DNA from: a virus
Lineage: Duplodnaviria; Caudoviricetes
Virus record (IMG/VR): IMGVR_UViG_3300025872_000066
Coordinates: 1-56,830 of that record
Direction: 5' to 3' (one strand)
Length of the DNA stretch: 56,830 nucleotides
Shown: positions 16,181-43,261 of the stretch, piece by piece
Position numbering within the stretch: position 1 is the stretch's first letter
How the letters are laid out: every line of letters begins with the position of its first letter
Translations under genes and position numbers: made by a program
Notes under the pieces: generated by a model
The model's input: only the letters and a program-made list of their open reading frames with translations
Told to the model about the DNA's origin: nothing
Database searches by the model: none

Positions 16181-17172
16181 TATTCATCCTCCAGGGCAGC
16201 GCCAGCCGCAATCGGCGCGAGTAGTCCGTACTGGCGGAGGATGCGGATCTTGTCCTCGGTGCCGGGGAACATCACGTAGTTGCGGGTGCCAGTTGGCCCG
16301 TAGTTGATTCCCTGCTGCCGCGACAACTGATCCAGATACCGAATGCCCGGGAAGCCGCCGTCGCGAACCGCGTCCGCAACGAGCCTCTTGGACACCTGAT
16401 TTCCAATTTGCTCTGGCATTTTCCACGTTTCGGCGTTCTCGCTGAGCGCATCCTGCAATCTGCCGTAGGCTTGCGATCCAGAGCCGTCAATTTCCAGGAC
16501 ACGGTCAAGCATCGCCACCGGAGGCTCATGCGGAAGCGTGGTGGACATTTTCTGAAAGAACTTTAAGGCGCGTGGCTGCTGTGACAGCGGGGCATCCCAG
16601 TCCAATAGCGATTGCTCCGGGGCGTCAATCGCTACCTCGTACATGTGCCCGCTGTTATGCCCAACAGTCTTTCCAGTGTAGTAGTCCAGGCCAGCGAGCC
16701 TTTCTGCATGCCGGTCCCTGCGCACTCTCAGCTCTGCCATTTCGGCCGGCAACCCTTTTGTGGCATCACTTTCCCAGCCGCCAAGAGAGTTAAACCGCTC
16801 TTGCAATTTCGCGAGACGATCAGAAAGCCTGTCATGTTCCATCTGCGCGAATTGCCGCAAAACGGACTCGTCTTCGCCCATGGCGAGCAAGACGGCGACA
16901 TCTCTGTGCGGAGCGTTGGGGTTTAGGATTTGCCCGTCCGCTACAAGCTGGCCGGACAGCGAATCGCGGTACGACTTGGCTGTCGGCTCCGCCCCTGCGA
17001 AGTACATCCCGTACCCATACGCCTGGGCACCTTCGCCCGTGCCGATCTTGCTTGCGTCGAATCGGTTGAAGCTATGCGGGCTACCGTGATACGCCCGGAT
17101 GTACTTCTGCGGCAGAGGAACGTCAGAGACTAACGCAGCGATGCGTCGGCCCAGCTTATCGGCGGCAGGCAT
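16180..17172 (-). CDS. putative ADP-ribosyltransferase-like protein (polyvalent-protein ART-type domain)
   Basis: AYHGSPHSFNRFDASKIGTGEGAQAYGYGMYFA...GHMYEV...GIRYLD...NYVMF. Confidence 0.65.
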   Translation of the reverse strand: MPAADKLGRRIAALVSDVPLPQKYIRAYHGSPHSFNRFDASKIGTGEGAQAYGYGMYFAGAEPTAKSYRDSLSGQLVADGQILNPNAPHRDVAVLLAMGEDESVLRQFAQMEHDRLSDRLAKLQERFNSLGGWESDATKGLPAEMAELRVRRDRHAERLAGLDYYTGKTVGHNSGHMYEVAIDAPEQSLLDWDAPLSQQPRALKFFQKMSTTLPHEPPVAMLDRVLEIDGSGSQAYGRLQDALSENAETWKMPEQIGNQVSKRLVADAVRDGGFPGIRYLDQLSRQQGINYGPTGTRNYVMFPGTEDKIRILRQYGLLAPIAAGAALEDE

Positions 17173-17212
17173 ATATCACTCCCGGTACACCTATCAGTGC
17201 CCGCCAGGAACA

Positions 17213-17241
17213 AGAAAGCCCCCGGAGCGTCCTCCGGGGGC
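17213..17241 (-). terminator. terminator separating the leftward GC-rich unit from the late operon
   Basis: GCCCCCGGAG/CTCCGGGGGC 10-bp stem followed by TTTCTT on the minus strand. Confidence 0.65.
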
Positions 17242-17509
17242 GTAGTGGCTACCGTGATGTCATGCACAGTGCCGGCGGGTCGGTGACCTCCGATTCCCGG
17301 GGCCTCATATCGTTGCCCAAGCGGCGTGTTTCGTAGCCGACACGCAAGCAGCACCAGGTTGTCGCAAACGTCTTCGCCCCGGTGATACGAACCAGTGTCC
17401 AGCCGGGCCACGTGGCGCTTCAGATTGGCTGTGTTCTCGGTGGGGGAGGGGTGTCAGCGGGCCATATGGCACTTAGAGGGCGGAAAATATCCGGGGGCGG
17501 GATTGACAA

Positions 17510-17602
17510 CCCAGTCGCGAAGCGACTGGGGGGAGAGGGGGCTTCCGAGCGATAGCGAGGAAGCCACCGACAAAACCGCCGAGCATCTGCGACAGCAGAT
17601 GC
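17510..17602. other. cluster of three hairpins, one with a GCGAAGC mini-hairpin core
   Basis: CCCAGTCGC-GAA-GCGACTGGG (17510-17530); GGCTTCC/GGAAGCC (17540-17565); GCATCTGC-GACA-GCAGATGC (17583-17602). Confidence 0.7.
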
Positions 17603-18304
17603 GAGGCGGCGCCGATACTGCTCCGGTGTACACTGCCGCCAACGGCCTCGGCCGCAAGCCGTTGTCGGGCCTCGGGTTAGGTGTCCGCTACGGTTTGGAT
17701 GCCGGATCGGCCATCGTCCGGCCTGCCGCTGTGGTGCGGCTGGTTCTCTGTGGTGTGCGGTGGTGCCCGGGCGGCGGCGGCGGTCGCGGCCGGGTCGCGT
17801 GGGCCGTGCATTGCCCCTCGGCCTCCCTCCCTCCCGGCCGCGTGGACCAGGCGGCGAGCGTCGCGGGCGGTGCGTCGGCCTGGTGCCGGGCGTCGCGGGC
17901 GTGTGCGGTGCGGCAGGTCTTTGTAGCGTCGGGCGTCTGCCATTCCCCGGGGCCGTGCGCGTCCGCTCGGGCCCATGCTGTTGGATCGTCACCGCGGCCG
18001 CGGATCACCCGCGGCCGTTGGCTGGCTCCATCGGTCCTCCCTTGGTTAGTGGTGCGGCCGGATCGCGACCGCCGGTTGTGGTGTACGGTAGCCGCCGGGG
18101 TTGGCTGTCCCCCGGCGGCGTGTGGCGCCGCTGCCGGTTGCAAGCCGGAGCGGCGGATGCGGCCTGACGGCTGGCCGGGGTCGCGGTGCGCGCTACCCTC
18201 GCCCGGTGCCGTACCCGTGTCGGGTTCGCCCCTGCCGGGGCTGTGGCCGTGTGCGGTTGCCCGGGCGGCGGCGCGTGGTCGCTGCCTGCCGCCCGGGCTT
18301 GCCC

Positions 18305-18979
18305 TCATCGGGCGTAATAGGCTGCTACCTGCTGCCGGTACGCTGTGAGGTTCTCACCCGTGAGGGGTTCGGCCTGCACGGCTGCGGCCGGTCGCGGGTC
18401 CGTGTCCCGGTGCAAGCCTCGGCACCCCCTGGCCGGTGGCGTGTAGCCCGGGCCAAGGTCCGTCACGCTGGGGACGGTGTTGGGTTCGTCCCCTTCGCCC
18501 CAGCCGGTGACGGCGTCGCGGACCCATGCTTCGATCCTCGCCCGGCGGCGCGTGGCCACTGGGGACGGGATCACTGGGCCGGCGGCGCTTTCGATGGCTG
18601 CGGCGATTGCATCGGGCCCGGGGCGTCCTGAGACGTCCCGCACCATCAACGGCTCTGCGGCGGGCTGGGCCTCCTGCTGGCCGGTGCGGCGGCGGCGGCG
18701 GGCGTGGCGGTGCCCCTCCTTCGTCATGCTGCCGATGCCGTAGCGCTTGGCGGTGGCGATCCGCCAAGCCACCGCTACCCGTGGGGTGGCGGGGCTGCGG
18801 TCCTTCCATTGCCGGGTCAGGAGGTCCACTAGAACCTCCTGGGCGATCTCGCCTGCCCGGTCGCGGTCTACCCCATGCGTCACCAGCCACCCGACCAAGC
18901 GGCGGCGGGCCTGCTGCCAGTCGGCGGCGGTGGCGGCGGGGAAGTTCAAACCCTCACGGGCGGGGATGGTGGCATACAT
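18305..18979 (-). CDS. protein with a sigma70/ECF region-2-like N-terminus and no evident region 4
   Basis: ATG 18979 after GGAGG. RRRLVGWL..GVDRDRAGEIAQEVLVDL...VAWRIA resembles ECF region 2 (AED..QE). Confidence 0.5.
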   Translation of the reverse strand: MYATIPAREGLNFPAATAADWQQARRRLVGWLVTHGVDRDRAGEIAQEVLVDLLTRQWKDRSPATPRVAVAWRIATAKRYGIGSMTKEGHRHARRRRRTGQQEAQPAAEPLMVRDVSGRPGPDAIAAAIESAAGPVIPSPVATRRRARIEAWVRDAVTGWGEGDEPNTVPSVTDLGPGYTPPARGCRGLHRDTDPRPAAAVQAEPLTGENLTAYRQQVAAYYAR

Positions 18980-19028
18980 GGTATCGGTCCTCCGTTGGTT
19001 GTGCCGGTGTGTCAGCACCGGTGAGGGG

Positions 19029-19058
19029 ATTGTAAGGCAGTCCCCGGGGGCGTGTCAA
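19029..19058 (-). promoter_or_regulatory. sigma70-type promoter
   Basis: TTGACA-N18-TACAAT on the minus strand, 50 nt upstream of the 18979 start. Confidence 0.75.
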
Positions 19059-19089
19059 GTACATCGTCCCCCGGGGCTGTGTGACTGTA

Positions 19090-19302
19090 TCAAACCTGCC
19101 GCATGGTACGGGTGATCACCTGCCCGTTATCCGCAGTGTACCGGGCGTGGAGCGTCGTTCCACGGCGGCGGCCGACAACCTGCCAGCGGGCTGCCGTCAC
19201 TCGGACGGCGGCGTCGATGTTCATCACCCGATGGCGGTGCATGTCAGTGACCACCCGGCCGCGAGGGCCGCGGTAATCGGCGGTGAGTTCAACTGTCCAC
19301 AT
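19090..19302 (-). CDS. small hypothetical protein
   Basis: ATG 19302 with AGGAG RBS; 70 aa MWTVELTADY... Confidence 0.65.
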   Translation of the reverse strand: MWTVELTADYRGPRGRVVTDMHRHRVMNIDAAVRVTAARWQVVGRRRGTTLHARYTADNGQVITRTMRQV

Positions 19303-19379
19303 AGGGCAGTCTCCTGGATGGGGAAGGAATGAAGCCGGAGCCGCCCCCGTGCGGCGTGGCACGGGGGCGGGTGCCGGAC

Positions 19380-19583
19380 TCACGCCTTGACGAAGGCGGT
19401 GAGGCCGACCTTGACAACCTGCCCGTCGACCGTGATCGGCGTCGGCTGGTTGCCGTGGGTGCTGGCGACGATCTTCGTCTTCCCGGTGGACGAGAGCGGC
19501 GGGTTCGCGTTCACCGGGATTCGGACGACCAGCGTCGCGGGCTGCGTCTTGGTGGCGGGTTCCAGGGTGTAGGTGGCGGACAT
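19380..19583 (-). CDS. small conserved protein (S.[ST]GKT..VAST.GN motif)
   Basis: 67 aa, PLSSTGKTKIVASTHGN; GGAG RBS. Confidence 0.75.
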   Translation of the reverse strand: MSATYTLEPATKTQPATLVVRIPVNANPPLSSTGKTKIVASTHGNQPTPITVDGQVVKVGLTAFVKA

Positions 19584-19801
19584 GGTAGGGCTCCGTTGGT
19601 TGCCCGGGTCGCTGGGCGGCGGGCGGGCCGTTCGTCGGCTCGCCACCTACTAGCCGGGACCGGGGCCGCGAGATTTTCCGGTTTTTTGGCGGCGCCGGTC
19701 CCGGCTTATTAAGTCGGCGGTTCGCGCCGCCGTCGCGGCCGGTTTTCCGGCCGTTTTCCCCTGGTTTTCCCGCTGAAAACAGGGGTTTTCCCAGTGTAGA
19801 C

Positions 19802-19838
19802 TGTACGGCTGTTCACCTCCCCGGTGGACGGCCGTACA
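19802..19838. promoter_or_regulatory. tandem palindromic operator-like boxes in the divergent control region
   Basis: TGTAC-GGCT-GTTCA (19802-19815) and TGGAC-GGCC-GTACA (19825-19838). Confidence 0.55.
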
Positions 19839-19893
19839 CCACCGCCGGCTCCCCGCCGGCCGGTGACGGGTGCGGGCAGCGATGGGGCTGCCT

Positions 19894-19941
19894 GGACCGT
19901 GCGGACAGCGGTGTTGCTCACAGGACCGTGCGGACAGCGGT
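19894..19941 (+). repeat. 19-bp perfect direct repeat, two copies
   Basis: GGACCGTGCGGACAGCGGT at 19894-19912 and 19923-19941. Confidence 0.9.
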
Positions 19942-19962
19942 CACACCACAACGGAGAGTGTC

Positions 19963-20847
19963 ATGGCTTACAAAATTGCGACAATCCTGCAGGACGGTGA
20001 CAACAATGCGAAGATCCGACACCATGGAGATGAGTACAAGGTCTATGGGATCTCCCTGGCATCGTCTGACTCCTCTGGGTTCAACTCCTGCCCACGGGCT
20101 CTGAGGCGGTCTGTCCTGCAGGAGATGCTGGACAATGGGATGGATATCCAGGAGATCGGGCAGTGGGCCAATCGCAGGGGGCTCTCCCTGTGTTCTGGCC
20201 CCTGTGTGACCTGGGAGGCAGGCCACGGGCAGTCGGACTTCGTCAGGGATGCACGCATCAACCTGACCAAGTGGCTGTATGAGAACCCCAGGTCATTCGG
20301 AGCCTACCTCCGGCGTGACATGGACCGGGTGGAGCGGAACCGCGGTGACTACATCGTCGCTGCCCGCACCAACATCGACAGTGACGTCAACTGGCTGTCA
20401 CTGTTTCCCTGGATGTACGACTACAACTGGCGGTTCTGGGACTACACCAAATGCTCTGAGCGTCTGGGCAAGACCCCCAGTAACTATCACCTGACCTACA
20501 GTTACAACGACGGCACACAGGCCAAGGACTGGGAGCGTGTGTATCGCACCAAGTCCAACGTGGCAGTGGTGTTTGACACCGTGTGGAACCCGTGGGGTAG
20601 CGAGTTTGGCTACCTCCCCGCCACCTGGACTGACCCCAACGGGAAGGTCTGGCCTGTGGTGGACGGTGACCGGCTGGAACTGCGGTTCCTGGACCCGGTG
20701 GATGTGTGTGTCGGCCTGCGGCTGAAGGCTGCCGGCGACAAGCGTGAAGATGCGTGCGAGTCGGAGTTTGCAGTGCCGACCGGCATTGACCAGGTGGGGA
20801 ACGTACACCCCGCCGATGCTGAGCCCGGCCACTACCTGGCAGCGTGA
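19963..20847 (+). CDS. GP88-like phage protein
   Basis: ATG 19963 after GGAG. CP...C...C, R.N.DSD..W, FWDYTK, NYHLTYS, NVAVVF, VDGD...RFLDP...VGLRLK. Confidence 0.75.
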   Translation: MAYKIATILQDGDNNAKIRHHGDEYKVYGISLASSDSSGFNSCPRALRRSVLQEMLDNGMDIQEIGQWANRRGLSLCSGPCVTWEAGHGQSDFVRDARINLTKWLYENPRSFGAYLRRDMDRVERNRGDYIVAARTNIDSDVNWLSLFPWMYDYNWRFWDYTKCSERLGKTPSNYHLTYSYNDGTQAKDWERVYRTKSNVAVVFDTVWNPWGSEFGYLPATWTDPNGKVWPVVDGDRLELRFLDPVDVCVGLRLKAAGDKREDACESEFAVPTGIDQVGNVHPADAEPGHYLAA

Positions 20848-28350: not shown

Positions 28351-28483
28351 GGAGGACTATGATGCGCAAGGACGCGCAGCTGATTGCTATACTTCACATG
28401 CTGGCAGTGGCGGTGCTGATGCTGCTAACCACCGAGTTAGTCGGCATCGCCCGCACACTGCTGGCTCACACCTTGGAGGGACG

Positions 28484-28816
28484 ATGAACTTCGATGAAGT
28501 CGATCCGGACGAATGCATGCCCAGTGTGGCAGTCGATGTTGCCGACGAGTTGCGGGAACACATCCGCGACCTCTATCTGCGGCAGCATCAACGCAACCAG
28601 GAGACGAACGGCGGGATGGCGAACGTCGTCCTGGCCGGGCTGACCCTGGTCTGGTTAGAGTCGGTTCACACCGTCTGGAATACCCCAACAGGGGAGTCGG
28701 CGGTTGGCTTGATGACCCAGTTGCGGCCGGATGACAAGGAGTCTAAGCGGGATATGCAGCGTGCTGCCCGTGACTTCTTGCGGCGGAGTGGATGGTGGGT
28801 GCGGAGGACCAAATGA
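28484..28816 (+). CDS. hypothetical protein
   Basis: GGAGG RBS, 110 aa. Confidence 0.65.
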   Translation: MNFDEVDPDECMPSVAVDVADELREHIRDLYLRQHQRNQETNGGMANVVLAGLTLVWLESVHTVWNTPTGESAVGLMTQLRPDDKESKRDMQRAARDFLRRSGWWVRRTK

Positions 28817-29157
28817 AGTACCAGCAGATCATCATGGCGAAGCGTATCGGCCCGGAAGACACTGAGTTCCGGCAGTTCTACGTGCCCGTCGAAGAACGCG
28901 ACGGCAAGTGGATGCCATGCGGGGCAATGCGGGAAGAGCATGTCTCGCAGGCTTCTATGTTCGGCAGTGTTGACGAGTACGAACACGGCGGCGGCGAGTC
29001 ATGCGGCGCTCTCGCTGACCTCGCTGCCCCGGACGGGTGGTTTGTAGCGTCGCGTCTATGGCTCCCTGACAACTACGTGCCTCCCTCTGCGGAGGTCCTT
29101 GAGGAGGGCGAGCGGCGGGCACGGAAGCACCTGAAGGAGATGCTAGGTGATGAGTAG
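28813..29157 (+). CDS. hypothetical protein
   Basis: ATGA overlap, GGAGG RBS. Confidence 0.65.
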   Translation: MKYQQIIMAKRIGPEDTEFRQFYVPVEERDGKWMPCGAMREEHVSQASMFGSVDEYEHGGGESCGALADLAAPDGWFVASRLWLPDNYVPPSAEVLEEGERRARKHLKEMLGDE

Positions 29158-29217
29158 CCTGCTGTCGGCGGCGTTCTTCTGGACCATCATCCTGTTCCTG
29201 TGCTACCGGAGGCAGCC

Positions 29218-29976
29218 ATGAAACTGTGGGGATACGTGCGAGTCAGCACCGATGACCAGCAGAACTCCGTGGCCAACCAGCAGGAGTTGATCCGCGACTA
29301 CGCCCGCAAGGCTGGCGTGATCGCCTGCATCTGCGTAGACGAGGACGTCACCGGCAAGTCTCCTCTGCGGAACCGGCCGCAGGGGAGACTGCTGTGGGAC
29401 GGGCTGAACCCTGGCGACACGGTGGTGTTCGCTAAGCATGACCGGGCGTTCCGGTCCCTGCGAGATGCTGCGGACACCGTTCACATCTGGCAGGAGCGTG
29501 GCGTCAGGGCCGTGTTTTTGAACCTCGGCCTGGACCTGGGCCGCCCCGAAGGCAGGTTGTTTTTCCACCAGTTGGCTTCGTTCGCTGAGTTTGAGCGTGA
29601 GCTGATTTCGCAGCGAGTCCGCGACTGCTTCGCTTACCTGAAGCAGCACAACCGCTGCCACGGGAACCGGCCTTTCGGGTGGACGAAGGACCGGCCTGGC
29701 AAGGGCGCTTACCTGATTCCGCTGGAGTCGGAGCGTGAGCTGGGCCAGCGTGTTTGCGGGCTGCACGCTGACGGGATGAGCTACCGGCAGATTGCGATGC
29801 TGCTCCTGGAGGAGCGGGTGACGAAGCCGGGGAAGCGGTCGATAGATCAGAAGGGCGGGATCTACAGTGTGTCGGACGTTCACGCTCTGTCTCTGGCGAC
29901 TCAGCAGGGATTCCCAGCCGTAGCGAGATCGTCCTTGCGAGTCGGCGGCTCGCCAGTGCAGCCGTCCGGATGTTGA
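29218..29976 (+). CDS. serine recombinase (resolvase/invertase family)
   Basis: GYVRVSTDDQ catalytic motif, DRAFRS, FAEFERELISQR, PFGW, C-terminal HTH SYRQIA. Confidence 0.9.
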   Translation: MKLWGYVRVSTDDQQNSVANQQELIRDYARKAGVIACICVDEDVTGKSPLRNRPQGRLLWDGLNPGDTVVFAKHDRAFRSLRDAADTVHIWQERGVRAVFLNLGLDLGRPEGRLFFHQLASFAEFERELISQRVRDCFAYLKQHNRCHGNRPFGWTKDRPGKGAYLIPLESERELGQRVCGLHADGMSYRQIAMLLLEERVTKPGKRSIDQKGGIYSVSDVHALSLATQQGFPAVARSSLRVGGSPVQPSGC

Positions 29977-30415
29977 TGGCGAACTCCTCCGACAGATCCA
30001 CCAGCCGCTTCTTCTCTACGAAGCGGTAGACCGCCATCTGCTGGTCGCGCTCTGGCATGCCGGCGATGGCGTCCTGGAGGTGGTCGATGGCGTCTTCATG
30101 GGCGAACGCCGCCTCGGCATCTTCCAGGGAGATCCGCTCCCCAGGCGTACGGGTCAGCCGCCTGATCGACTTTAGCATCGCGTTCAGGATAGCCCGGGCG
30201 AAATACTTCTTGGGGTAGGGCAACTTCGCCGGGTCGTACGTGCGGGCGGCACGGCACAGGGCCAGGAACCCCTCGCCCTCTAGGTCCGGGATGTACAGCG
30301 ACCGCTGCCAGCCAGGCCGGTTCTGGACGAAGTACCTGGCCACCTGCGTGACCATCTCTGAGTATTCAGCGACGAGCTGCTGTTGCCGCTTGGAGAGCCG
30401 TGATCGCCCGCTCAT
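29504..30415 (-). CDS. phage-encoded sigma-70 family factor (regions 2 and 4) with an unusual C-terminal extension
   Basis: DLEGEGFLALCRAARTYDP (region 2); LQDAIAGMPERDQQ...RF (region 4). Confidence 0.8.
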   Translation of the reverse strand: MSGRSRLSKRQQQLVAEYSEMVTQVARYFVQNRPGWQRSLYIPDLEGEGFLALCRAARTYDPAKLPYPKKYFARAILNAMLKSIRRLTRTPGERISLEDAEAAFAHEDAIDHLQDAIAGMPERDQQMAVYRFVEKKRLVDLSEEFAINIRTAALASRRLARTISLRLGIPAESPETERERPTHCRSRPSDLSTASPASSPAPPGAASQSAGSSSRQRAARKHAGPAHAPTPAESGKRPCQAGPSSTRKAGSRGSGCAASGKRSSRGLAAKSAHAQTQRTKPTGGKTTCLRGGPGPGRGSKTRP

Positions 30416-30566
30416 GTCGTTCCAACTGGACCTGGGTCTGATGCACCAGTTCCGGGAGCCCTTCCATGGCATGTGCGATCATCGTCACCTTCGCGTGCAT
30501 GCTCATGGCCCAGGGAACCACCGCCACCAAGACGGTGATGCCTATCAGTACCTGGTCAGTCGTCAT
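30366..30566 (-). CDS. small membrane protein (TM plus coiled coil)
   Basis: VLIGITVLVAVVPWA hydrophobic segment; C-terminal HERAITAL. Confidence 0.65.
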   Translation of the reverse strand: MTTDQVLIGITVLVAVVPWAMSMHAKVTMIAHAMEGLPELVHQTQVQLERHERAITALQAATAARR

Positions 30567-30741
30567 CAATCCCCTCCGCGATCAGCTCTAGCAAACCGCC
30601 GGCCGCCTCGTCCGGCAACGAACCTGCCCGTACGTCGGCCATGATCTTTCTCACGGCAGACCGCCACTGACCAGGGGGGAATTGGTAGATCCACGTGTGC
30701 CCAAAACCCTGGGCCTTCACCCGGACTATGGTTTTGGGCAT
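30556..30741 (-). CDS. hypothetical protein
   Basis: Fills the gap between coupled genes; start uncertain. Confidence 0.55.
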   Translation of the reverse strand: MPKTIVRVKAQGFGHTWIYQFPPGQWRSAVRKIMADVRAGSLPDEAAGGLLELIAEGIDDD

Positions 30742-30959
30742 CGTCCATCGGGGCATGCTGCCCTCTCCGTGCAACTGCAGTCCGTCCAATGCTGTCCATC
30801 TCCCGTGCGAACCTTGCCGGTGCCACTGCACTTCACGCACTTGGGGTCGGCAGGCTTGGGCGGAGCGGGGGATGGGCTCGCCTGCTCGGCATCCAGCGCA
30901 GCGTGGATGGCGATGACGGCAACGTAGTGCGGGGTGTACTCGTTCCAGTAGAGCGGCAT
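30726..30959 (-). CDS. small protein with hydrophobic N-segment and DnaJ-type CxxCxGxG Zn finger
   Basis: CVKCSGTGKV...CSC, C-terminal CPDGRCP. Confidence 0.7.
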   Translation of the reverse strand: MPLYWNEYTPHYVAVIAIHAALDAEQASPSPAPPKPADPKCVKCSGTGKVRTGDGQHWTDCSCTERAACPDGRCPKP

Positions 30960-31897
30960 CAGATTCTCCCTATGCTACCCAGGTCAGGCAGCGGGCGGGC
31001 AGGGTAGCCCTGGACGTCGGAGTACGCCCAGATGTCTTCGCTCTCCACGCACGTGGCGTAGCCGGCATCGTCAGTGACGATCATGCCGGGGATCTGCTCG
31101 GGGTAGATCGATGGCCAGTCCTTGACCGGCTGGTTCCACCGCCCCCAGCTATTGGCTATGAACCAGACCCGGAACGGCCAGAACTCCTTTGTGTCGTCAT
31201 AGCCCACGGTGGCCATATCATGGGCCCATCCCGGGCTGACACGCGGGTGGATGTTCTTGCTGCTTGGCCTGTCGGACCAGGCTGCCATCTGCCCAGAGTG
31301 GATGCCGTACCCGTTGAACAGGGCATCCATGGCATCGTCCATGGTGCGGACAAGGGCGATGGTCCCCACCTTGTTGCGGTTGCACAGGTCCAGCACCGCC
31401 TTGGGGACGCCTGTCGATCCCCACCTGGCACCCAGGGCACCGTTGTAGACCGACAGATCCACCACGCCATCGAACTTCTGGCGTGCCAGGAAGCCCGTGT
31501 CGCGCTCAAACCTGGCCGCCCGGGCCGGGCTCATGCCTGCACCGGAGTGACCGCGGGCCCCGTACGTGGGCTCCGTGGCGGTGCGGACAACCCACTCCTC
31601 GGGCTTGCCCTTCAGCAGGATCGACACGGCGCGGCTGCAATCCCTGGCGTTCCGGCTCCCATGTGAGACACAGTCGCCTTCTGTCTGTTTTTCGCTGAAC
31701 GCACCTGGGTCCAGCTGCCGCACGTATCCCCAGAGCATGGCACGCTTCCCTTTCCCACTGCCAGGCGACTGGAACGAACGCAGCGGGTTCGTCTCCAGGA
31801 ACTCCATCTTCTCCCGTGGGCTCGGCACGTAGCCGGCCAGGCCGCCAAACTGGTAGGCCCGCACCAGCTCTTCTGTGCTGTCGAAGTCACCTGGCAT
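30959..31897 (-). CDS. papain-like (C1-type) cysteine peptidase
   Basis: QTEGDCVSHG (Gln, Cys), WAHDMATVGY (His), IANSWG (Asn). Confidence 0.85.
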   Translation of the reverse strand: MPGDFDSTEELVRAYQFGGLAGYVPSPREKMEFLETNPLRSFQSPGSGKGKRAMLWGYVRQLDPGAFSEKQTEGDCVSHGSRNARDCSRAVSILLKGKPEEWVVRTATEPTYGARGHSGAGMSPARAARFERDTGFLARQKFDGVVDLSVYNGALGARWGSTGVPKAVLDLCNRNKVGTIALVRTMDDAMDALFNGYGIHSGQMAAWSDRPSSKNIHPRVSPGWAHDMATVGYDDTKEFWPFRVWFIANSWGRWNQPVKDWPSIYPEQIPGMIVTDDAGYATCVESEDIWAYSDVQGYPARPLPDLGSIGRI

Positions 31898-32300
31898 CAG
31901 CGGCCACCTTCTGCAATGCCTTCACCAGGGCAGCCCGCTTGTTCGTCTCGCCGTCCAGGCCGGTGTTGTCCTTGCCAACCGCGGCCACCAGCTCGTCATC
32001 GATGGCCACATCCAGGCCGATGTACTTGCCGGGGAGGTCAGTCCCCTTGAAGGCCTCGTCCAGGCTTGTGGCATGCACCCGGCGGAACCCATCCATGGTG
32101 GTGATCGACTTGCTGCGGGACACCACATCCGCCATGGCATCGTAGAACGATGACACCCGCGTGCGATCCGCCTTGGTGGCTGGCCGCAGGGCCATGCCCA
32201 CCTTCGACACGGCGGCCGGAGGGGCGGGCTTGGGGACCTCGGGCATGAACGCCCAGATCAGGCCGACTGCCGCCAGGGCCGCGAAGACATGCTTCATCAT
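31887..32300 (-). CDS. signal-anchored/exported protein
   Basis: MMKHVFAALAAVGLIWAF followed by a Pro linker. Confidence 0.7.
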   Translation of the reverse strand: MMKHVFAALAAVGLIWAFMPEVPKPAPPAAVSKVGMALRPATKADRTRVSSFYDAMADVVSRSKSITTMDGFRRVHATSLDEAFKGTDLPGKYIGLDVAIDDELVAAVGKDNTGLDGETNKRAALVKALQKVAADAR

Positions 32301-32509
32301 TTGATTCCCAGCAGGGCCTCCATCAGGGCGTTGCATGCCTGCGTCACCTCGGGCGTGCGGTACGAGTCGCGCACGGCAATGACGTTGCGGATATGGGTCA
32401 GCAGGACAGGGGCCCGGCTTCCCTGAAAGGCCCACTGGACCAGCGGCCAGAGGTACATCACCGCCACGCCAGCGGCTGACAACAGTGCCACAATCTGAGT
32501 TGCCGTCAT
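32297..32509 (-). CDS. small membrane protein
   Basis: N-terminal TM IVALLSAAGVAVMYLWPLV; ATGA overlaps. Confidence 0.7.
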   Translation of the reverse strand: MTATQIVALLSAAGVAVMYLWPLVQWAFQGSRAPVLLTHIRNVIAVRDSYRTPEVTQACNALMEALLGIK

Positions 32510-33393
32510 ACGATCACCCTGCATCCGTTCCCAACCAGGCTGGTTGGATTGATTAAGCCCCACCCGTACATGCCGTCCTTGCCAGGATCCCCGGCATCCG
32601 TGGACGTCTCTCGGAGAATCTTGCTGGCCTTCTGCGCCAGGCCAGCCGTGCCGCACTTGCCGGCGTGCAACGCCAGGACGCCGGCCACAAACGGGGCGGC
32701 CATGCTTGTGCCAGAGAGGGTGGCGTACTTGCCACCCAGCCAGGCGCTGGTGATCTGATAGCCAGGGGCGGCAACGGCAATCTCACGCCCGCGGCAGCTG
32801 AACTCGCAGACCTGCCCATCCTGGTCCACGGCCCCAACGGCGATCACGCTGCCGTATGCCGCTGGGTAGTTGACACTGCCGCCGTCATTCCCAGCGGCGC
32901 AGACAACCGCAATACCCTGCTCTGCGGCATTGGCGCATGCCTCCTGCAGATACGGCACGCTGACAGGGCAGCCCAGGCTCATCACAATGATGTTGGCCTT
33001 GGCTTCAATGGCGGCATGGATCGCCTGCGTCACGTGCTGCAGTGATCCGGCGCCGTTGTTGTTTAGGACCTTGAACGACAGCAGCTCCGCCTGGGGAGCC
33101 ACGCCACGCATCGAACCCCTGCCGGCCAGGACGCCCGCCACATGGGTCCCGTGGCCGTTGGTGTCGTAAGGGCTGCAGTCGGTGGTGAAGTTGCGATGCT
33201 CCTTCACGGCACCCTCCATGGCCGGATGGCCGGGCTCTATTCCGGAATCCAGGATCGCCACCCGCACCCCGGCCCCCTGGTGCTGACTCCAGAGGGCCGG
33301 GATGCCGTACGCGGAGAGCGACCAGTCCACGCCGGAGGAGGGGAGGGCGTGTGCGACTGCCTCTACACGGTACGGTGGGAGGTGGCCGATCAC
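32506..33393 (-). CDS. subtilisin-like (S8) serine protease
   Basis: VAILDSG, NGHGTHVAG, AAGND, SGTSMAAPFVAG; GTG start at 33393 overlapping the upstream stop. Confidence 0.93.
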   Translation of the reverse strand: MIGHLPPYRVEAVAHALPSSGVDWSLSAYGIPALWSQHQGAGVRVAILDSGIEPGHPAMEGAVKEHRNFTTDCSPYDTNGHGTHVAGVLAGRGSMRGVAPQAELLSFKVLNNNGAGSLQHVTQAIHAAIEAKANIIVMSLGCPVSVPYLQEACANAAEQGIAVVCAAGNDGGSVNYPAAYGSVIAVGAVDQDGQVCEFSCRGREIAVAAPGYQITSAWLGGKYATLSGTSMAAPFVAGVLALHAGKCGTAGLAQKASKILRETSTDAGDPGKDGMYGWGLINPTSLVGNGCRVIV

Positions 33394-33716
33394 TTCTGGT
33401 TGCGCCTGGCGATGAAGACCTGGATGAGCGTCGAAACGATGGGCGCGACCACCGTCAGGAGAATCGGAATCGGGATCCCGTACTCCGCCTGGGCAGTGGC
33501 CATGACCTCGTCCTGCTCCTCGGCCGACAGGGCCTGGGCCTGGAACAGCGGGAAGGTTTCGATCACCGGCAGGACCGCCTTGGCGATCAGGTAAACGATC
33601 TCCAGCTTCTGCGAGAGGCTGAGACTGTCGCTCCAGCCGGCGACGATGTTGGCGATCTCCTTCAACACCGTGGTGTTGGACAGGAGCCACCGGACGATCA
33701 GGAACTTGTCAGTCAT
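33390..33716 (-). CDS. membrane protein, holin-like candidate
   Basis: Hydrophobic segments and a basic C-terminus (IARRNQK); AAGGAG RBS. Confidence 0.55.
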   Translation of the reverse strand: MTDKFLIVRWLLSNTTVLKEIANIVAGWSDSLSLSQKLEIVYLIAKAVLPVIETFPLFQAQALSAEEQDEVMATAQAEYGIPIPILLTVVAPIVSTLIQVFIARRNQK

Positions 33717-34104
33717 TTAGGGGCTCCTTGCGCCGTTCACAGGCAATAGCGACCACCGCATGGCCGGCGATGTCCATGAGGGTCTTCTGTCTAGTAATTG
33801 TCTCCAGCGGCCCCCTTAGCCGGCGGGTTTTCTCTCCGATCCTGGCCGTCTGGTACTGCCAGGCCGGGATGCCGTCCTGCTCCACGCCCAGGGCGTTTTC
33901 CAGGGGGTCTTCCTTGCACCCGTAATAGCTCCGCTTCCTGGTCAGGAGGCGGTACAGCTCGTCGCAAATCTCCCGGTAGGGGTCACCACTGATACTCCCT
34001 GCTGGCTCCGACAATGCGTCCGTATTCGGCCCAAAAGACGCTGTGATGGGGGTCTTCTTCCCGATCACACAGATACGCGGTTCTTGCATGTGCCCACTCC
34101 TCAC
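33709..34104 (-). CDS. DUF1599/Nmad1-like all-helical nucleotide-modification-associated protein
   Basis: RKRSYYG...RIGEK..RL...TLMDIAGHAV; true start uncertain because of overlap with the upstream gene. Confidence 0.6.
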   Translation of the reverse strand: MRSGHMQEPRICVIGKKTPITASFGPNTDALSEPAGSISGDPYREICDELYRLLTRKRSYYGCKEDPLENALGVEQDGIPAWQYQTARIGEKTRRLRGPLETITRQKTLMDIAGHAVVAIACERRKEPLND

Positions 34105-34321
34105 AGCATGTGTCTAAAAAACTATCCCGTGTCAGCGTGTTACTAATGACAATGAGCCCACGCATCTCATCCTCGTTGAACTCAAAGTACCCCAGCATCC
34201 CCGGCAGCTTGGCCGGGGGTCGCAGGTAGACTCTCACCGGATACGGCAGTGGGAAGTTCGCCTGTGCCCAGCGCCGAAAGCGCTTGAGCAGCCGCGGCCT
34301 CCAGTCTGGCGTGGAACTCAT
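33983..34321 (-). CDS. metallopeptidase-like protein (EEWAH variant of HExxH)
   Basis: DTCCEEWAHA...HHSVFW..YG. Confidence 0.55.
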   Translation of the reverse strand: MSSTPDWRPRLLKRFRRWAQANFPLPYPVRVYLRPPAKLPGMLGYFEFNEDEMRGLIVISNTLTRDSFLDTCCEEWAHARTAYLCDREEDPHHSVFWAEYGRIVGASREYQW

Positions 34322-34616
34322 ACAACCTCTCCAGCGGCAGCGTGATCAGCCACGGCTCCCTTGCCTTCTTGCTCAGGACCACCGGAACCAGGCCGCCTGA
34401 ATCCGCCTCGGCCTGCTTCATCCAGGACCGGATCGATTCCCGCTCTACGAACTTGACCTCCCAGTGGACGCCTTCCAGCTCCACCTCCAGGTCGGCCGAG
34501 TCGGCGCCCCCCTTGAATTGCACGCCACGCCTGGCCGGCAAGCGGATTGCCTGGGACACCGCTTTTGCGGCCAATCGCTCGCCCCTTTTCCCCTTCTCCC
34601 TCTGGCTACGGCCCAT
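34182..34616 (-). CDS. PD-(D/E)XK Holliday junction resolvase-like protein
   Basis: SQREKGKRGER, SADL, HWEVK, PWLITL. Confidence 0.8.
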   Translation of the reverse strand: MGRSQREKGKRGERLAAKAVSQAIRLPARRGVQFKGGADSADLEVELEGVHWEVKFVERESIRSWMKQAEADSGGLVPVVLSKKAREPWLITLPLERLYEFHARLEAAAAQALSALGTGELPTAVSGESLPATPGQAAGDAGVL

Positions 34617-34881
34617 GCTTGGTCCTCACAAACAGCGGCCCATCGGGCCCCACGTACGCCCCCAGGGTGTTGAAGCTCAGGTACTCCACGGCCTCGTCCT
34701 CAGACAGGCCGTCCTCCATCAGCTTCTGGACGCAGGCATTCAGGTCGTACACGGCCACTACCGGGTGGTGGTGGTTGCATGTGTAGCCAATCAGGGCGTC
34801 TTCAAACCCGTCCGCCAGGAGAGCCTCGGGGTTCTCCTCGGCCAGGTCAGCGAACAAGTCTTCCGGTGGGATGGCGATCAT
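34606..34881 (-). CDS. conserved phage protein (ADG.D.A.IG...EA.EY..FN..GAY.G family)
   Basis: LADGFEDALIG, VAVYD, EAVEYLSFNTLGAYVG. Confidence 0.8.
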   Translation of the reverse strand: MIAIPPEDLFADLAEENPEALLADGFEDALIGYTCNHHHPVVAVYDLNACVQKLMEDGLSEDEAVEYLSFNTLGAYVGPDGPLFVRTKHGP

Positions 34882-35285
34882 GGCTTCCTTGCCCTGGTCA
34901 GGTTGATCTCACGCTCGTTCAGATACCACTCGTCCGGCGGCTCGGGCTCGTAGCCCAGGTGCCGCTTCATCCGCAGGCTGGCGAGGTACTCCGGGTCGTA
35001 GTTCTCTGGGTCCGACTGCTCCTTAGCCCACAGCAGTGTGCTTTTGTACAGCGGCGGGAAGTTCCCGGCAACCAAACCGTCATGTAAAACGTCATGGCAC
35101 CGGCCGCAGAGCCGGAGGTAATTCCGGACGTCATGCCTTCGCCCGGCTCCACCCTGAAGGTGATGCACCTCCAGCTGGCGGCGGCCATCAGACTCCGGCC
35201 ACCAGCACACGGCACAGCAGCGGTGGTACTGCACCCAATCCGCGATGGCGGCCCGCTCGGCCTTAGTCATCCGTGCCATGTACAT
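34878..35285 (-). CDS. HNH endonuclease
   Basis: CAVC...LEVHH...NYLRLCGRCHDVLH. Confidence 0.8.
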   Translation of the reverse strand: MYMARMTKAERAAIADWVQYHRCCAVCWWPESDGRRQLEVHHLQGGAGRRHDVRNYLRLCGRCHDVLHDGLVAGNFPPLYKSTLLWAKEQSDPENYDPEYLASLRMKRHLGYEPEPPDEWYLNEREINLTRARKP

Positions 35286-35567
35286 TCCTCAGCGCAGACC
35301 CATTCCCTGCTGAGAGGCAAGGGGTTGACTCTCAGTTGGCCCAGTGGCCACCAATGGCTGCCTTATCGTTAGGCTCTCAGCTATCGACCGGGACGCATGG
35401 GGGGTGCTGGATCTAGTACCAGCGCGTTGCCCGGCTTTCGCGCAACCATTAGCCAACTTGTGCGGACTAGCCGCTCCTGCATAGGCAGGCGTTTGTTTAT
35501 GCTCGCGCTTTTGGTTAACAGCCGGCGGGTGCTGCGAGAAGATGAACCGCCTCGGGGGAACTGTGTA

Positions 35568-35756
35568 CTACCTAGGGCCGGTGTCGGCAACAAAAGTCAT
35601 GTGCGGACACTGGGCCGGAGTTTTATTGACGAGGTTCTCTAGCTCAGTAAGCCTCGCCCGCATGGACTCTGCGGTGTGTCTGTACTGTGCAATGACGTCC
35701 TCTAGCTGGACGATCCGATGCAGGAGGAAAAGAGCGTCTTCACTGCTCATATGCAC
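35568..35756 (-). CDS. small coiled-coil protein
   Basis: 62 aa helical ORF coupled to the upstream gene. Confidence 0.5.
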   Translation of the reverse strand: MHMSSEDALFLLHRIVQLEDVIAQYRHTAESMRARLTELENLVNKTPAQCPHMTFVADTGPR

Positions 35757-35968
35757 CTCTTAACTGGCACCTCTGGGTGCGGAATGTCGTACATTTCGTT
35801 GCCCATGACTCTCACTTCTGCGGAGTCAACGTGTACTACCTCGCCTGTGTCGAACCGCTGTACTACCCAGACGCTGTTCAGGTGCGGCCCGTAGTCGATC
35901 AGCACCAGGGCGAACCCTTCACCGAGAGGCGTGGCAACCCAGATCGGCGGGTTTAACTGGAGCATCAT
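35747..35968 (-). CDS. conserved small phage protein (QLNPPI.V.TP.G...IDYG family)
   Basis: MLQLNPPIWVATPLGEG...IDYG...WVV. Confidence 0.75.
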   Translation of the reverse strand: MMLQLNPPIWVATPLGEGFALVLIDYGPHLNSVWVVQRFDTGEVVHVDSAEVRVMGNEMYDIPHPEVPVKRCI

Positions 35969-36301
35969 TTGGCCATCATCCACAGGCCGATGTTGGCTAC
36001 TGCATAGGACGCCCAAGTAATAAAACCAGGCACGTTTTTCTTACATAACTGCTCGCAAGCTACGTAGGCGTAGATGCACATGGTCAATAGGATCAGGTGT
36101 CTGCTCATGCTGTCAACTGTCACTTTCCGCCAGTTTGTGGGCGTTCGCGTTATGCGGCAGATAAGCCGTAGAACACGCTGGTCCGCTTTTCTGATTTAAG
36201 CTGAAGCCCCTGCGCCGCATCGACTTCCACCGCACGGCCCGGAACGCCTTGGGACGTTACCCAGCAAGCCGGTCGTTTATACGGGTCTGCAGAAACACTG
36301 G

Positions 36302-36586
36302 TTATGCGAATGAAAAATGCCGCTTACCAGATTGCGGCGACGGTGTTGAGCCCCGTCGGTTCGCCTTGCCCGCCCGGCTCGGAGGCTCGGCCATACGTCG
36401 CATCACCCACCGACAATAGGCAAGGAGTGGCGGCACCGGGAGATCATCCCGGCCTCGTACTCTCGGCGCGCTTTCCGATTTCCTTAGTCGCGTCACTTGC
36501 CGCCGTCGCTCCATCAAATGTCGTTCACGCATAACCACGCGATACAGCGGACTCGCGAGAGCGTCGGTTGGTTTGTTCATGGTCAT
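36302..36586 (-). CDS. cassette C ORF (Arg-rich; may be non-coding)
   Basis: ATG inside attC3, stop TAA inside the GCATAAC box. Confidence 0.35.
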   Translation of the reverse strand: MTMNKPTDALASPLYRVVMRERHLMERRRQVTRLRKSESAPRVRGRDDLPVPPLLAYCRWVMRRMAEPPSRAGKANRRGSTPSPQSGKRHFSFA

Positions 36587-41385: not shown

Positions 41386-42263
41386 GCCTCTCCTCCTCTG
41401 AGAAACGCTGGGAACTCCAGCTCACACTCCTCGTCATCCTCCGGGCTGCTGTAGACGCCCAGCTCGCGTCGCAGCCGGATCTGATCCAACGTGACCCGGA
41501 TCTGCTCGCGGGCCTGCTCCACCAGCTCCTCTGGCAGCGTGAACACACGCACGCCATGAGGCTTGCTGGTCTGGGCAAAGACAAACTTCAGCGAGTGGTG
41601 ATCCCACCCGCACGCCATAGCAGCGTCCACGTACCAGGCAGCTTGCCACAGGTAGCCGTAGTCAACGCAACTGCGCCAGAGCTGCTTCCAGTCGCTACTG
41701 GTGGTCTTGAAGTCCCACAGGTAGTCGGGCGTTACGCCGTCCGCGAGGCCCTTCCGCTGGTGGCCGGCGGCATCGACATGCCGGAAGGCAGCCTGCATGT
41801 CCGTTGTGGCTTCCAGGATCGCAGCAGCGGCCGGGTGCCGTGTGACGTTCCTGATGATCCGCTGCAGCCTCCACCAGTCAGCGGCAGTGAGGATCGACTT
41901 ATCAAGGTTGTCGGCCACCCAGTCGGTGTACGCCTTTCCACGGCGGGCCCCGTTGGAAAGCACTTCCTCCGGCACCACCGCCAGATGGTCCTCCAGAGCC
42001 ACCCCCGCCACCACCATGGGGATCGCCCGGTCAACCAGCGATCCAAAGTCCGTGGCGGCGTTACCGCTGAACAGTTGTTCCCCATTATCCAGGGCCTCCT
42101 GTGCCAGCGGCCCGCCACGGAAGACGGCGTGAGCGTACGACCGCGTGAAGTGTCCATCGTCACGGCGGTACGCCGCGTCGATTTCGGCCTGGTTCAGCAG
42201 GGCCTTGCCGGAATCAAGCTGCGCAATGCAGCCAGGCGTATAACTACCAGTGGCTGTGACCAA
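41382..42263 (-). CDS. RecE/exonuclease VIII-like PD-(D/E)XK nuclease
   Basis: FGSLVD, KGLADG, WDFKTT, YGYLWQAAWY; adjacent to ERF. Confidence 0.8.
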   Translation of the reverse strand: MVTATGSYTPGCIAQLDSGKALLNQAEIDAAYRRDDGHFTRSYAHAVFRGGPLAQEALDNGEQLFSGNAATDFGSLVDRAIPMVVAGVALEDHLAVVPEEVLSNGARRGKAYTDWVADNLDKSILTAADWWRLQRIIRNVTRHPAAAAILEATTDMQAAFRHVDAAGHQRKGLADGVTPDYLWDFKTTSSDWKQLWRSCVDYGYLWQAAWYVDAAMACGWDHHSLKFVFAQTSKPHGVRVFTLPEELVEQAREQIRVTLDQIRLRRELGVYSSPEDDEECELEFPAFLRGGEA

Positions 42264-42439
42264 GTGTCGCCTCCCTCAGCAGGACAAGAGCCTTCTGAGG
42301 GTGGCCGATGACCAGCATGGTCACGGCCGCCGCCACGCAAGTGGCGGCAATGGCAAGGGATCGCAGGCAGCTAGACAACTGAGCTAGTTGCCCGCGCCCC
42401 TTGACAAACCTCAGAAATGCGGAATTGTCGGGGTACATC

Positions 42440-43261
42440 ATGCTACTCACTGACTTTGCGAAACGCTACGCCAACCGCGTAGGGGCTTCTCCAGGCTATT
42501 TGGAGCAGCTTTTGGTGTTCACCAAGCGCCTGGACTGGCAGGTGGAGGAGATCACCACCGAAATGGTGGACTCCTACTTGACTGCCGCTCTGGGGGGTTT
42601 GAGCCCCAATACAGTCGCCAATCACCGCAGACTCCTCACAACCCTCATGCGCGAAGCTAATCGCACCGGCCTGAACACGTGTATAGCGAATGGATTCCGC
42701 CGCGTCAAGGTGCCTAGGCCGATCCCCAGGGCGCTGTCGCATGCGGAGATTCGTCAGGCAGTAGAAGCTGCCCGGCAGACGCCCGGTCATTTCCGTGACC
42801 TCCAAAAGTCCGACTTCCTTGTCGCCTGGTTCTTGACCGCGTATTCGCTAGGCCTGCGTGCGGGCGACCTAGTCGAAATCCGGTGGGATCAAGTACGTGG
42901 GCGGAAAATCTATCTGGGCCAATCGAAGACGTCAACTCCCCATGTCTCGCTTTTTACTGACGAGGCGTTGTGCGCGTGTAAGGCCCTTCCGAAGCGCACG
43001 CGGATCTTTGGGGACTTCGCTGCGCTCAACACAATCCAGCAGTGGGTGAAGGCCTGCATGGTGAGCGCAGGCCTGGATGCGTCAACGAAGTTCCTGCGAC
43101 GCTCAGCCGCGACATATGCCAAGGTCCAGGGCAAGTCGCCCAAGGCGGTGCTGGGGCATTTGACCGAAGGCCTAGCCGAAAGGCACTACGTCGATCAGCT
43201 GCTGTACGAAGAGGAGACTGGCCTGAACCAGGAGCCCCTGCCGTCCGTGATGGGCGCCTAG
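42440..43261 (+). CDS. tyrosine recombinase/integrase
   Basis: GLRAGDL (R), SKT (K), KFLRRS (HxxR variant), VLGH, RHY (Y). Confidence 0.88.
   Translation: MLLTDFAKRYANRVGASPGYLEQLLVFTKRLDWQVEEITTEMVDSYLTAALGGLSPNTVANHRRLLTTLMREANRTGLNTCIANGFRRVKVPRPIPRALSHAEIRQAVEAARQTPGHFRDLQKSDFLVAWFLTAYSLGLRAGDLVEIRWDQVRGRKIYLGQSKTSTPHVSLFTDEALCACKALPKRTRIFGDFAALNTIQQWVKACMVSAGLDASTKFLRRSAATYAKVQGKSPKAVLGHLTEGLAERHYVDQLLYEEETGLNQEPLPSVMGA

Follow-up and report, generated by a model that had tools for sequence, protein, structure and literature searches.

Phage lysis cassettes of the holin-endolysin-spanin type, in which an enzyme is flanked by small transmembrane (TM) proteins, are among the closest described counterparts of the locus presented here. 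Clan-CA cysteine peptidases are known from lysis cassettes; papain-superfamily domains occur in the endolysin Lysin A (LysA) of mycobacteriophages, as N4 (NlpC/P60) and N5 (Peptidase_C39_2) (PMC3314691; bioRxiv 10.1101/2025.01.22.634383), and in a Gordonia phage lysis cassette (PMC4982276). The LysA peptidase domains are short and are fused to a glycosidase or amidase and a wall-binding domain. We describe here a region of a virus genome (Duplodnaviria; Caudoviricetes), IMG/VR record IMGVR_UViG_3300025872_000066, whose whole length of 56,830 nucleotides was analyzed and is called the window. Its minus strand carries, at 30366-33716, eight translationally coupled genes, A to H, one of which, E, encodes a papain-fold cysteine peptidase. 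We infer that the region is a lysis cassette and E its wall-breaching enzyme, a reading that we consider somewhat better than an even bet.

The region resembles a holin-endolysin-spanin cassette in that small TM proteins flank the enzyme (A, C, D, and H; the same in the related loci L013-L018 and L044-L047) and in that, in relatives, a type II membrane protein, D′, and a lipoprotein, F′, stand on either side of the enzyme. The variants of E, which have no signal, an anchor, or a Tat (twin-arginine translocation)-like or lipoprotein-like N terminus, parallel the export variety of canonical, signal-arrest-release (SAR), and secreted endolysins. The region differs in having no sequence match to holin, spanin, or endolysin families, in its cathepsin-like enzyme, and in a redox partner, F, and a helical-bundle partner, D, that have no counterpart there. 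Unlike the LysA domains, E stands alone, is of the two-lobe C1 type with a pro-region, and is the only enzyme of its own cassette. The PeiP and PeiW pseudomurein endoisopeptidases of methanogen phages and the V-CATH of baculoviruses are viral cysteine peptidases that break an unusual host wall or tissue at release; they offer a functional analogy only.

Lysis is favored because the region is the sole membrane-protein cluster in a complete genome, because it holds a single conserved enzyme with periplasm-pointing homologues, because that enzyme has, in relatives, a type II membrane protein on one side and a lipoprotein on the other, because the unit moves between unrelated phage backbones into positions usual for lysis cassettes, and because no endolysin was found in any of its contexts.

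Peptidase E and its family

The structure of E predicted from a 55-sequence alignment (mean predicted local distance difference test score [pLDDT], 92.8; predicted template modeling score [pTM], 0.90) has the two-lobe papain fold. Foldseek returned procathepsin B (E value, 7.5e-9), xylellain (1.6e-8), and then other papain-family enzymes; among its best 50 rows the one exception was the related C. difficile surface protease Cwp84 at rank 46. VIA-align gave xylellain at Z 21.5 (root mean square deviation [rmsd], 2.7 over 229 residues), pro-Der p 1 at 20.2, and procathepsin K at 19.7, and all 50 rows shown were C1 enzymes. CHAP and NlpC/P60 folds were absent from the best 50 rows shown by either program. 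Mature C1 enzymes align with model residues ~34-50 to ~296 and pro-forms from residues 2-5, so E has a full C1-type fold whose first ~45 residues resemble the last part of a pro-region. Compared with the C1 zymogens (xylellain, procathepsins B, K, and L, and pro-Der p 1), E aligns at Z 18-21.5 with rmsd 2.7-3.9 over 208-252 residues, has its Gln, Cys, His, and Asn-Ser-Trp motifs in the same order, and has an N-terminal segment that aligns with their pro-region. It differs from them in its low identity (10-17% in the structural alignments), in having only the last ~45 pro-region residues, in its separate or fused membrane-anchored partner D, and in its phage context.

An earlier note on this DNA had read papain-like Q/C/H/N motifs in E, and the reading was right: Q71, C76, and H226 are invariant in 55 diverse homologues, and N249 is invariant in 12 closer sequences. 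The positions at least 90% conserved in the 55-sequence alignment include S250 and W251; N249 is absent from that list. Of 150 E representatives, 35 have insertions of at least 100 residues; the site is close to Cys76 in 28 of these, close to His226 in 5, and close to residue 255, by the NSWG motif, in 1. Intein, HINT, or LAGLIDADG Pfam models matched 18 of the 29 representatives scanned, and the intein junctions, in the subset read, were TGD/C...HN/CVSHG and H/C...HN/CM (slash, junction). LAGLIDADG inteins lie before Cys76, after His226, and after NSWG in homologues P0002, P0005, P0006, P0010, P0026, P0037, and others, with two inteins in some proteins. Inteins are usually reported in DNA-metabolism and packaging proteins. 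Their presence at the motif residues of E marks the three motifs as a conserved catalytic center under strong constraint. E is a real enzyme under such constraint.

An exhaustive HMMER search found 818 E-family cluster representatives (50% identity) at an E value of ≤1e-3 and 81 at ≤1e-30; the closest 120 clusters have neither a name nor a Pfam domain. E itself had no Pfam match at ≤0.01, and the E profile weakly finds cathepsins and caricain (E value, ~1e-3). Among cultured phages, tblastn of E against 50,697 records gave no match, nor did blastn of 29500-35300. The family profile made a weak local match to Bxz2 gp11 (LysA) that covers the catalytic His and a GYDDT motif (hhalign probability, 42%; E value, 2.7e-4; 63 columns). 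PF13529 reached 21.8 bits on one distant E homologue and matched 0/55 E-family members and nothing in the window (six-frame search; E value, ≤1). At the same threshold, CHAP (PF05257) and NlpC/P60 (PF00877) had no six-frame match in the window, with positive controls present.

Related loci

The order A-B-C-D-E-F-G-H-sigma is kept in 11/11 related loci (L002-L012; the window clade), which comprise six viral contigs, with E 56-76% identical, and five genome-bin contigs. Homologues of A and G were found in this clade only, and H is kept in all 11 of its loci. C and D are fused as one open reading frame (ORF) in L002, L005, and L008, giving a two-TM protein with a D domain; C and D probably function together as a unit.

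The earlier note had proposed synteny across related phages as a check, and beyond the window clade the D-E-F set recurs, without the S8 gene B, in unrelated phages (group 2; L013-L018). These phages are of a different type, marked by a portal of lambda type and by the fusion of protease and capsid in one gene, and their E is 47-50% identical. Group-2 cassettes run C′ (TM helix), D′ (signal anchor, Pro-rich linker, helical domain), E, F′ (signal peptide and lipobox in 6/6 loci, CxxC...CxxC, coiled coil), A′ (C-terminal TM helix), and H′ (N-terminal TM helix and coil). By BLASTP, D is homologous to D′, the gene upstream of E in the group-2 prophages, and F to the lipoprotein F′; window-clade F is without the lipoprotein and coiled-coil part of F′. 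Two group-2 copies lie within 0.9- and 5.5-Mb contigs of a Thermoguttaceae (Planctomycetota) genome. The cassette stands between capsid and head-decoration genes in L014-L018, and between primase and ParB-methylase plus terminase genes in L013. Lysis cassettes of P2-like and lambdoid phages sit in similar positions. The large terminase of one group-2 prophage (L028:2918-6223, G002:C302; 1101 amino acids [aa]) carries a LAGLIDADG-type insertion, probably an intein.

More distant E homologues (24-27% identical), in prophages of Planctomycetota chromosomes, adjoin terminase, portal, Gam, or methylase genes in L044, L046, and L047, and in L044-L047 the neighbors of E include two to four genes for small TM proteins or lipoproteins (4/4 loci). 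Directly downstream of E, L044 and L045 encode a membrane-anchored thioredoxin (Pfam), and L046 encodes a protein with a WCKWC motif and no Pfam match, so the position of F is filled by another CxxC protein. The specificity of the E profile (A1; E value, ≤1e-5) was examined in three phylum samples. Matches were found in 11/301 Planctomycetota genomes (5 strong, below 1e-20), in 1/301 genomes of the phylum of the genome labeled Rubrivivax (strong; the center genome itself), and in 13/301 genomes of the phylum of the genome labeled Chitinophagales (2 strong, one in the center genome and the other in G777, at a locus that is not phage). Members of the E family are overrepresented in Planctomycetota without being confined to that phylum.

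Localization and partner proteins

No signal peptide was found in E of the window. Its homologues point to the periplasm: those in L044 and L047 have N-terminal TM anchors, P0041 begins with RRHFL, which reads as a Tat-like motif, and a lipoprotein-like signal opens P0147; Pfam TAT_signal matches 1/55 family members. Longer homologues join a TM anchor, a D-like domain, and E in a single protein, evidence that the two cooperate beyond the inner membrane. Such N-terminal D-like fusions were detected in 6 of 150 representatives with a hidden Markov model (HMM) built from the D alignment (E value, ≤1e-3) and in ~13 by eye, and D-E coupling is tight in all contexts.

The predicted structure of D (pLDDT, 91.6) is a TM helix followed by a four-helix bundle and gave no informative fold match, the best Z of 6.8 lying within the chance range for helical bundles. 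The proposal that D supplies the missing helical part of the C1 propeptide found no support and was dropped. F has weak matches to the DnaJ zinc finger (E value, 0.048) and anti-TRAP (0.017), and A has none in Pfam, PHROGs, or NCBIfam.

Membrane proteins and search for a peptidoglycan hydrolase

CheckV rates the 56,830-base record 100% complete. Hydrophobic segments were found in 8/91 ORFs, 4 of them within the module, which is the sole cluster of such ORFs in the record. Strong hydrophobic segments outside it are encoded at 28359-28487 (plus strand, 42 aa) and at 42244-42450 (minus strand, 68 aa), the latter adjoining the integrase gene.

The earlier note had recognized no peptidoglycan hydrolase in the genome, which holds at the HMM level. 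None was found with Pfam in 90 ORFs (E value, ≤0.01) or in 46 unassigned ORFs (≤1), none was accepted with PHROGs in 90 ORFs (≤1e-3), and none was found with NCBIfam in 55 ORFs (≤0.1). A six-frame search of the whole record (≤1) was negative for Amidase_2, Phage_lysozyme, SLT, M23, CHAP, NLPC_P60, M15_4, and C39_2, each of which gave matches in control genomes. Hydrolase families were likewise absent from 72 ORFs of two group-2 contigs, 80 ORFs of L044-L047, and 48 ORFs of L054 and L057.

Two PHROGs matches with lytic names appear to be to non-lysozyme regions of multidomain profiles. The first, phrog_873 "endolysin" (E value, 7e-4), covers residues 23-72 of ORF 16180-17172, the same stretch as a match to ART-PolyVal, the ADP-ribosyltransferase of polyvalent proteins. 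The second, phrog_1922 "baseplate hub and tail lysozyme," covers residues 298-363 of a 940-aa tail protein, a part shared by 13 other structural-protein PHROG matches within residues 156-798. ORF 16180-17172 (minus strand, 330 aa) heads the structural block, and the ART-PolyVal likeness of its N terminus (E value, 6.9e-5) is below the cut-off.

Genome and gene layout

Pfam and PHROGs searches of 90 ORFs placed the portal, large terminase, major head protein, and tail-type proteins on the minus strand and identified a tyrosine integrase and a small serine recombinase. No tRNA genes were found in the record. The A-H region lies in a minus-strand block (42450 to 29504) that runs through exonuclease, Erf, single-stranded DNA-binding protein, helicase, HNH, and RusA-like or PDDEXK nuclease genes, then A-H, and then a sigma-factor gene (Table 1). 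The coupled genes that had been listed for this region are real, with overlapping stops and starts (GTGA, ATGA, TGATG) read directly on the minus strand from 33800 to 30300. The S8 gene stands as described, except that its start had been placed at 33690; the gene in fact begins at 33393 with a GTG that overlaps the stop codon of A. Coupling extends past A-H on both sides, to 33709-34104 upstream and to the sigma-factor gene downstream, and therefore cannot by itself delimit the module.

Table 1. Genes of the A-H region and the adjoining sigma-factor gene
Gene	Position	Strand	Description
A	33390-33716	minus	108 aa; hydrophobic segments 40-58 and 79-104; basic C terminus; holin-like by architecture only
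B	32506-33393	minus	295 aa; S8 subtilase, intracellular serine protease (ISP) type
C	32297-32509	minus	70 aa; N-terminal TM helix
D	31887-32300	minus	137 aa; signal-anchored: TM helix, Pro-rich linker, four-helix bundle
E	30959-31897	minus	312 aa; papain-fold (C1-like) cysteine peptidase; pro-region-like N terminus; no signal peptide
F	30726-30959	minus	77 aa; CxxCxGxG...CxC; zinc-ribbon or thiol-redox-like
G	30556-30756	minus	~66 aa, soluble; start uncertain, second ATG at 30741
H	30366-30566	minus	66 aa; N-terminal TM helix and helical C terminus/coil; holin- or antiholin-like by architecture only
Sigma factor	29504-30415	minus	Extracytoplasmic function (ECF)-type sigma-70; coupled downstream of H; Pfam Sigma70_r2 E value 6.7e-7; NCBIfam sigma70-ECF E value 5.9e-12, above cut-off

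The ECF-type sigma factor is a possible late regulator. Its ORF overlaps the convergent serine-recombinase gene (29200-29976, plus strand) by ~470 bases, and the low-complexity tail at its C terminus can still be aligned, up to residues 286-287, in four related contigs. Elsewhere in the record, ORF 18305-19018 (minus strand) has weak sigma-70 matches, including to a "Rhodopirellula/Verrucomicrobium family" model (E value, 0.026). The surrounding stretch at 17200-19870 has overlapping ORFs on both strands, with a G+C fraction of 0.70 around 18001-20000 and an ambiguous coding assignment. Scans of 28800-36500 gave 2 promoter-like sites (1.4 expected), both on the other strand, and 10 terminator-like sites (4.7 expected), only 1 of them on the minus strand.

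Subtilase B

B matches Pfam PF00082 (Peptidase_S8) at 176.8 bits against a cut-off of 21.8 (E value, 7.9e-52). Its D/H/S motifs, previously noted as intact, are in the right triad order, and D49, H81, N169 (oxyanion), and S230 are invariant in 12/12 sequences (the window and 11 loci). The best solved relatives are the ISPs 6f9m, 7y6m, and 7xr8 (E values, 1e-49 to 8e-49). The alignment with these structures starts at residue 4, where HLPPYRVEAV pairs with HLIPYRVEQV; HLPPY is kept in 12/12 B sequences and HLPPYR in 11/12. A LIPY-type N-terminal motif defines ISPs, in which it is autoinhibitory. No signal peptide, I9 prodomain, or hydrophobic segment was found in B. By sequence, B is an intracellular (ISP)-type subtilisin. 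It has in common with the ISPs of Bacillus and relatives the HL(I/P)PYRVE motif and the lack of a signal peptide and I9 prodomain, and it differs from them in being phage encoded, in lying in a membrane-protein operon, and in being without a C-terminal extension.

Homologues of B (35-43% identity) occur in 94 cultured-phage records, mostly of large Bacillus phages. The Tsamsa homologue has hypothetical genes, an RNA ligase, and a DNA ligase as neighbors, and that of a Moorella phage is surrounded by genes for primase, helicase, a RuvC-like resolvase, and DNA polymerase. B adjoins E in 11/27 loci examined, that is, in 11/11 of the window clade and in 0/16 others (L013-L021, L044-L047, L054, and L057). 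A lysis role of B is doubtful, since it is of ISP type and its cultured-phage relatives, in the two neighborhoods above, lie among replication or early genes. B is a clade-specific insertion of an intracellular-type subtilisin beside E, and it may serve as an activator of E, as a helper on envelope proteins, or in an unrelated cytoplasmic function.

Host

Planctomycetes have peptidoglycan sacculi, which survive boiling sodium dodecyl sulfate (SDS) and are destroyed by lysozyme (PMC4432640). The protein-walled host on which the earlier note had built is therefore a dated premise, although cysteine-rich YTV proteins are still reported in planctomycete walls (PMC12673574). In favor of the planctomycete host that the earlier note had assumed, the cassette is common to the window and to prophages in Planctomycetota chromosomes, and 8/14 genome-bin loci bear Planctomycetota names. 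On the other side, the window portal was not found in 301 Planctomycetota genomes (E value, ≤1e-10; a search without a positive control), and the five genome-bin contigs of the window clade, all ≤55 kb, are named from five lineages (Synechococcaceae, Chitinophagales, Myxococcales, Pirellulaceae, and Rubrivivax). The NCBIfam matches of the sigma factor and the recombinases gave no host clue.

Proposed mechanism and substrate

The data show the gene order, the folds, the catalytic residues, and their conservation, together with the fusions and signals of homologues; the lysis function, the topology, the sequence of events, and the substrate are inferred. If the region is a lysis cassette, its core would be D-E and F, surrounded by the small membrane proteins A, C, and H. 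E would be made as a zymogen-like protein, its first ~45 residues corresponding to the cleft-filling part of a C1 pro-region. Being without an export signal in the window, E would reach the periplasm once a small membrane protein permeabilizes the inner membrane in the manner of a holin. There it would meet the membrane-anchored D domain and cut peptide bonds that hold the envelope together. F, replaced elsewhere by thioredoxin, would control or protect the catalytic cysteine of E by thiol-disulfide exchange; alternatively, the redox partner may target a disulfide-rich substrate. P1 lysozyme, whose catalytic cysteine is caged, is a known case of a lysis enzyme under disulfide control, so a redox partner need not indicate the substrate.

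We lean slightly toward the peptide stems or cross-links of peptidoglycan, over wall proteins, as the substrate of E. Sacculi that resist SDS and are broken by lysozyme (PMC4432640) imply that peptidoglycan must be cut for lysis, and papain-superfamily domains are already found in endolysins, so E may simply be a peptidoglycan peptidase; the weak local match of the E profile to Bxz2 LysA also counts for this substrate. Wall proteins are favored by the true-protease fold with its pro-region, by the cysteine-rich YTV proteins reported in planctomycete walls (PMC12673574), by the redox partner that is always present, and by the second protease added in the window clade.

Alternative interpretations

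Several observations weigh against lysis by E. A, C, D, and H match no known holin or spanin family in Pfam, PHROGs, or NCBIfam, and their group-2 counterparts match none in PHROGs. F of the window lacks a lipobox, and thus nothing there suggests a component in the outer membrane. PF00112 (Peptidase_C1) scores 11.8 bits on E against a cut-off of 20.7 (E value, 0.26); it matches 1/55 family members at ≤0.01, the distant homologue in L047 reaching 22.2 bits, which makes a new family with a C1-like fold a better assignment for E than Pfam C1. The other ORFs were searched with HMM-level methods only, so a cryptic endolysin may lie among the ~50 that are unassigned. The cassette is coupled to upstream recombination and nuclease genes and lies ahead of the sigma factor instead of behind it, an arrangement that does not by itself point to late expression, and the promoter and terminator scan gave no usable expression signal. 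The host of the window clade is unproven.

Two loci outside phages also weigh against it. In L045 (G274:C1:864000-883900, at ~8400-11900) a full cassette of four small TM or lipoprotein genes, E, and the membrane-anchored thioredoxin stands among ordinary host genes, and no phage gene was seen in the 20 kb examined; this copy may have been domesticated or may be a remnant. In L054 (G777:C1:2730500-2750400, at 9800-10735) a lone E homologue (profile E value, 6.8e-96; 29% identity) lies in a Bacteroidota chromosome among genes for a short-chain dehydrogenase, an agmatine-deiminase-type protein, and a CN hydrolase, with no membrane-protein neighbors, so the E family has cellular members.

The alternative that survives best, which we nevertheless regard as doubtful, is that both proteases are lytic, digesting a proteinaceous, disulfide-cross-linked planctomycete wall while the redox partner reduces the cross-links, with no need to cleave peptidoglycan. 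The complete cathepsin-type fold of E with its pro-region (Cwp84 being the only exception to papain-family enzymes among the best 50 fold-search rows) is in its favor, as are the thiol-redox protein (F or thioredoxin) that adjoins E in all cassette types and the cysteine-rich YTV wall proteins (PMC12673574). So is the stable retention of S8 in 11/11 loci, exactly those in which F lacks the lipoprotein and coiled-coil part. Against these stand the SDS-resistant sacculi destroyed by lysozyme (PMC4432640), which leave peptidoglycan still to be breached, the intracellular type of the S8 enzyme and its lack from every other cassette, the unproven host, and the E homologue in a Bacteroidota chromosome. 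The two-protease lysis system of the earlier note is only partly supported: it keeps its lysis-like region, the lack of a canonical endolysin, and an E retained in every related cassette, and it loses the equivalence of B (ISP type, 11/27 loci) with E and the dated premise of a protein wall.

A bolder form of lysis by E is likewise doubtful and is offered as speculation: a cathepsin-like protease would lyse Planctomycetota, and possibly other, hosts in place of a peptidoglycan hydrolase, with D and E forming a membrane-tethered, split or fused zymogen that is redox switched in the periplasm and digests a cysteine-rich wall protein layer, and with B recruited as a second lytic or activating protease.

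It is unlikely, in our judgment, that the cassette has no part in lysis and is an envelope-remodeling or exclusion module, an accessory of temperate phages that, for example, trims receptors or surface or periplasmic proteins, with cryptic lysis genes elsewhere. The L045 cassette among host genes, the early or middle operon in which the window cassette lies, its shifts between genomic positions in the manner of accessory genes, and the ~50 window ORFs without an assigned function would all suit such a module. They are countered by a record that is rated complete and holds no other membrane-protein cluster and no hydrolase, by retention of the cassette in every related phage examined, and by cassette positions typical of lysis cassettes.

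That B and E are cytoplasmic proteases for host takeover, counter-defense, or virion maturation, with the membrane proteins as unrelated neighbors, is very improbable: the lack of signal peptides on both in the window, the ISP likeness of B, the early or replication genes around its Tsamsa and Moorella phage homologues, and the place of group-2 E inside a head gene block fit this idea, but E homologues have signal anchors, Tat-like or lipoprotein-like N termini, and fusions to TM-anchored D, D and E are tightly coupled across all contexts, and group-2 head modules already encode a capsid-fused protease. A role of E as head-maturation protease was rejected on account of that group-2 protease-capsid fusion and of the embedding of group-2 E among five membrane or lipoprotein genes.

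Significance

Lysis with E as the wall-breaching enzyme would add to the described systems a holin-type cassette centered on an enzyme of a new family that has partners of its own. In the open-access literature, supplements aside, we found neither an account of planctomycete phage lysis genes nor one of a lysis cassette with a C1-type peptidase. The regulation suggested for the E family is unusual, combining a pro-region like that of a zymogen with a membrane-anchored partner (in some cases fused to the enzyme), a redox partner, and inteins at catalytic residues. Should its substrate be wall protein, this would be a new kind of phage lysis, and under the bolder form above, tailed phages of bacteria would gain their first proteolytic lysis system. 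If lysis is the work of E, its 818 representatives, all unnamed, would amount to a large new family of phage lysis enzymes wholly overlooked by current annotation, and the apparent lack of an endolysin in such phages and prophages would be explained. E would then also give an experimental handle on what bears the load in the planctomycete envelope.

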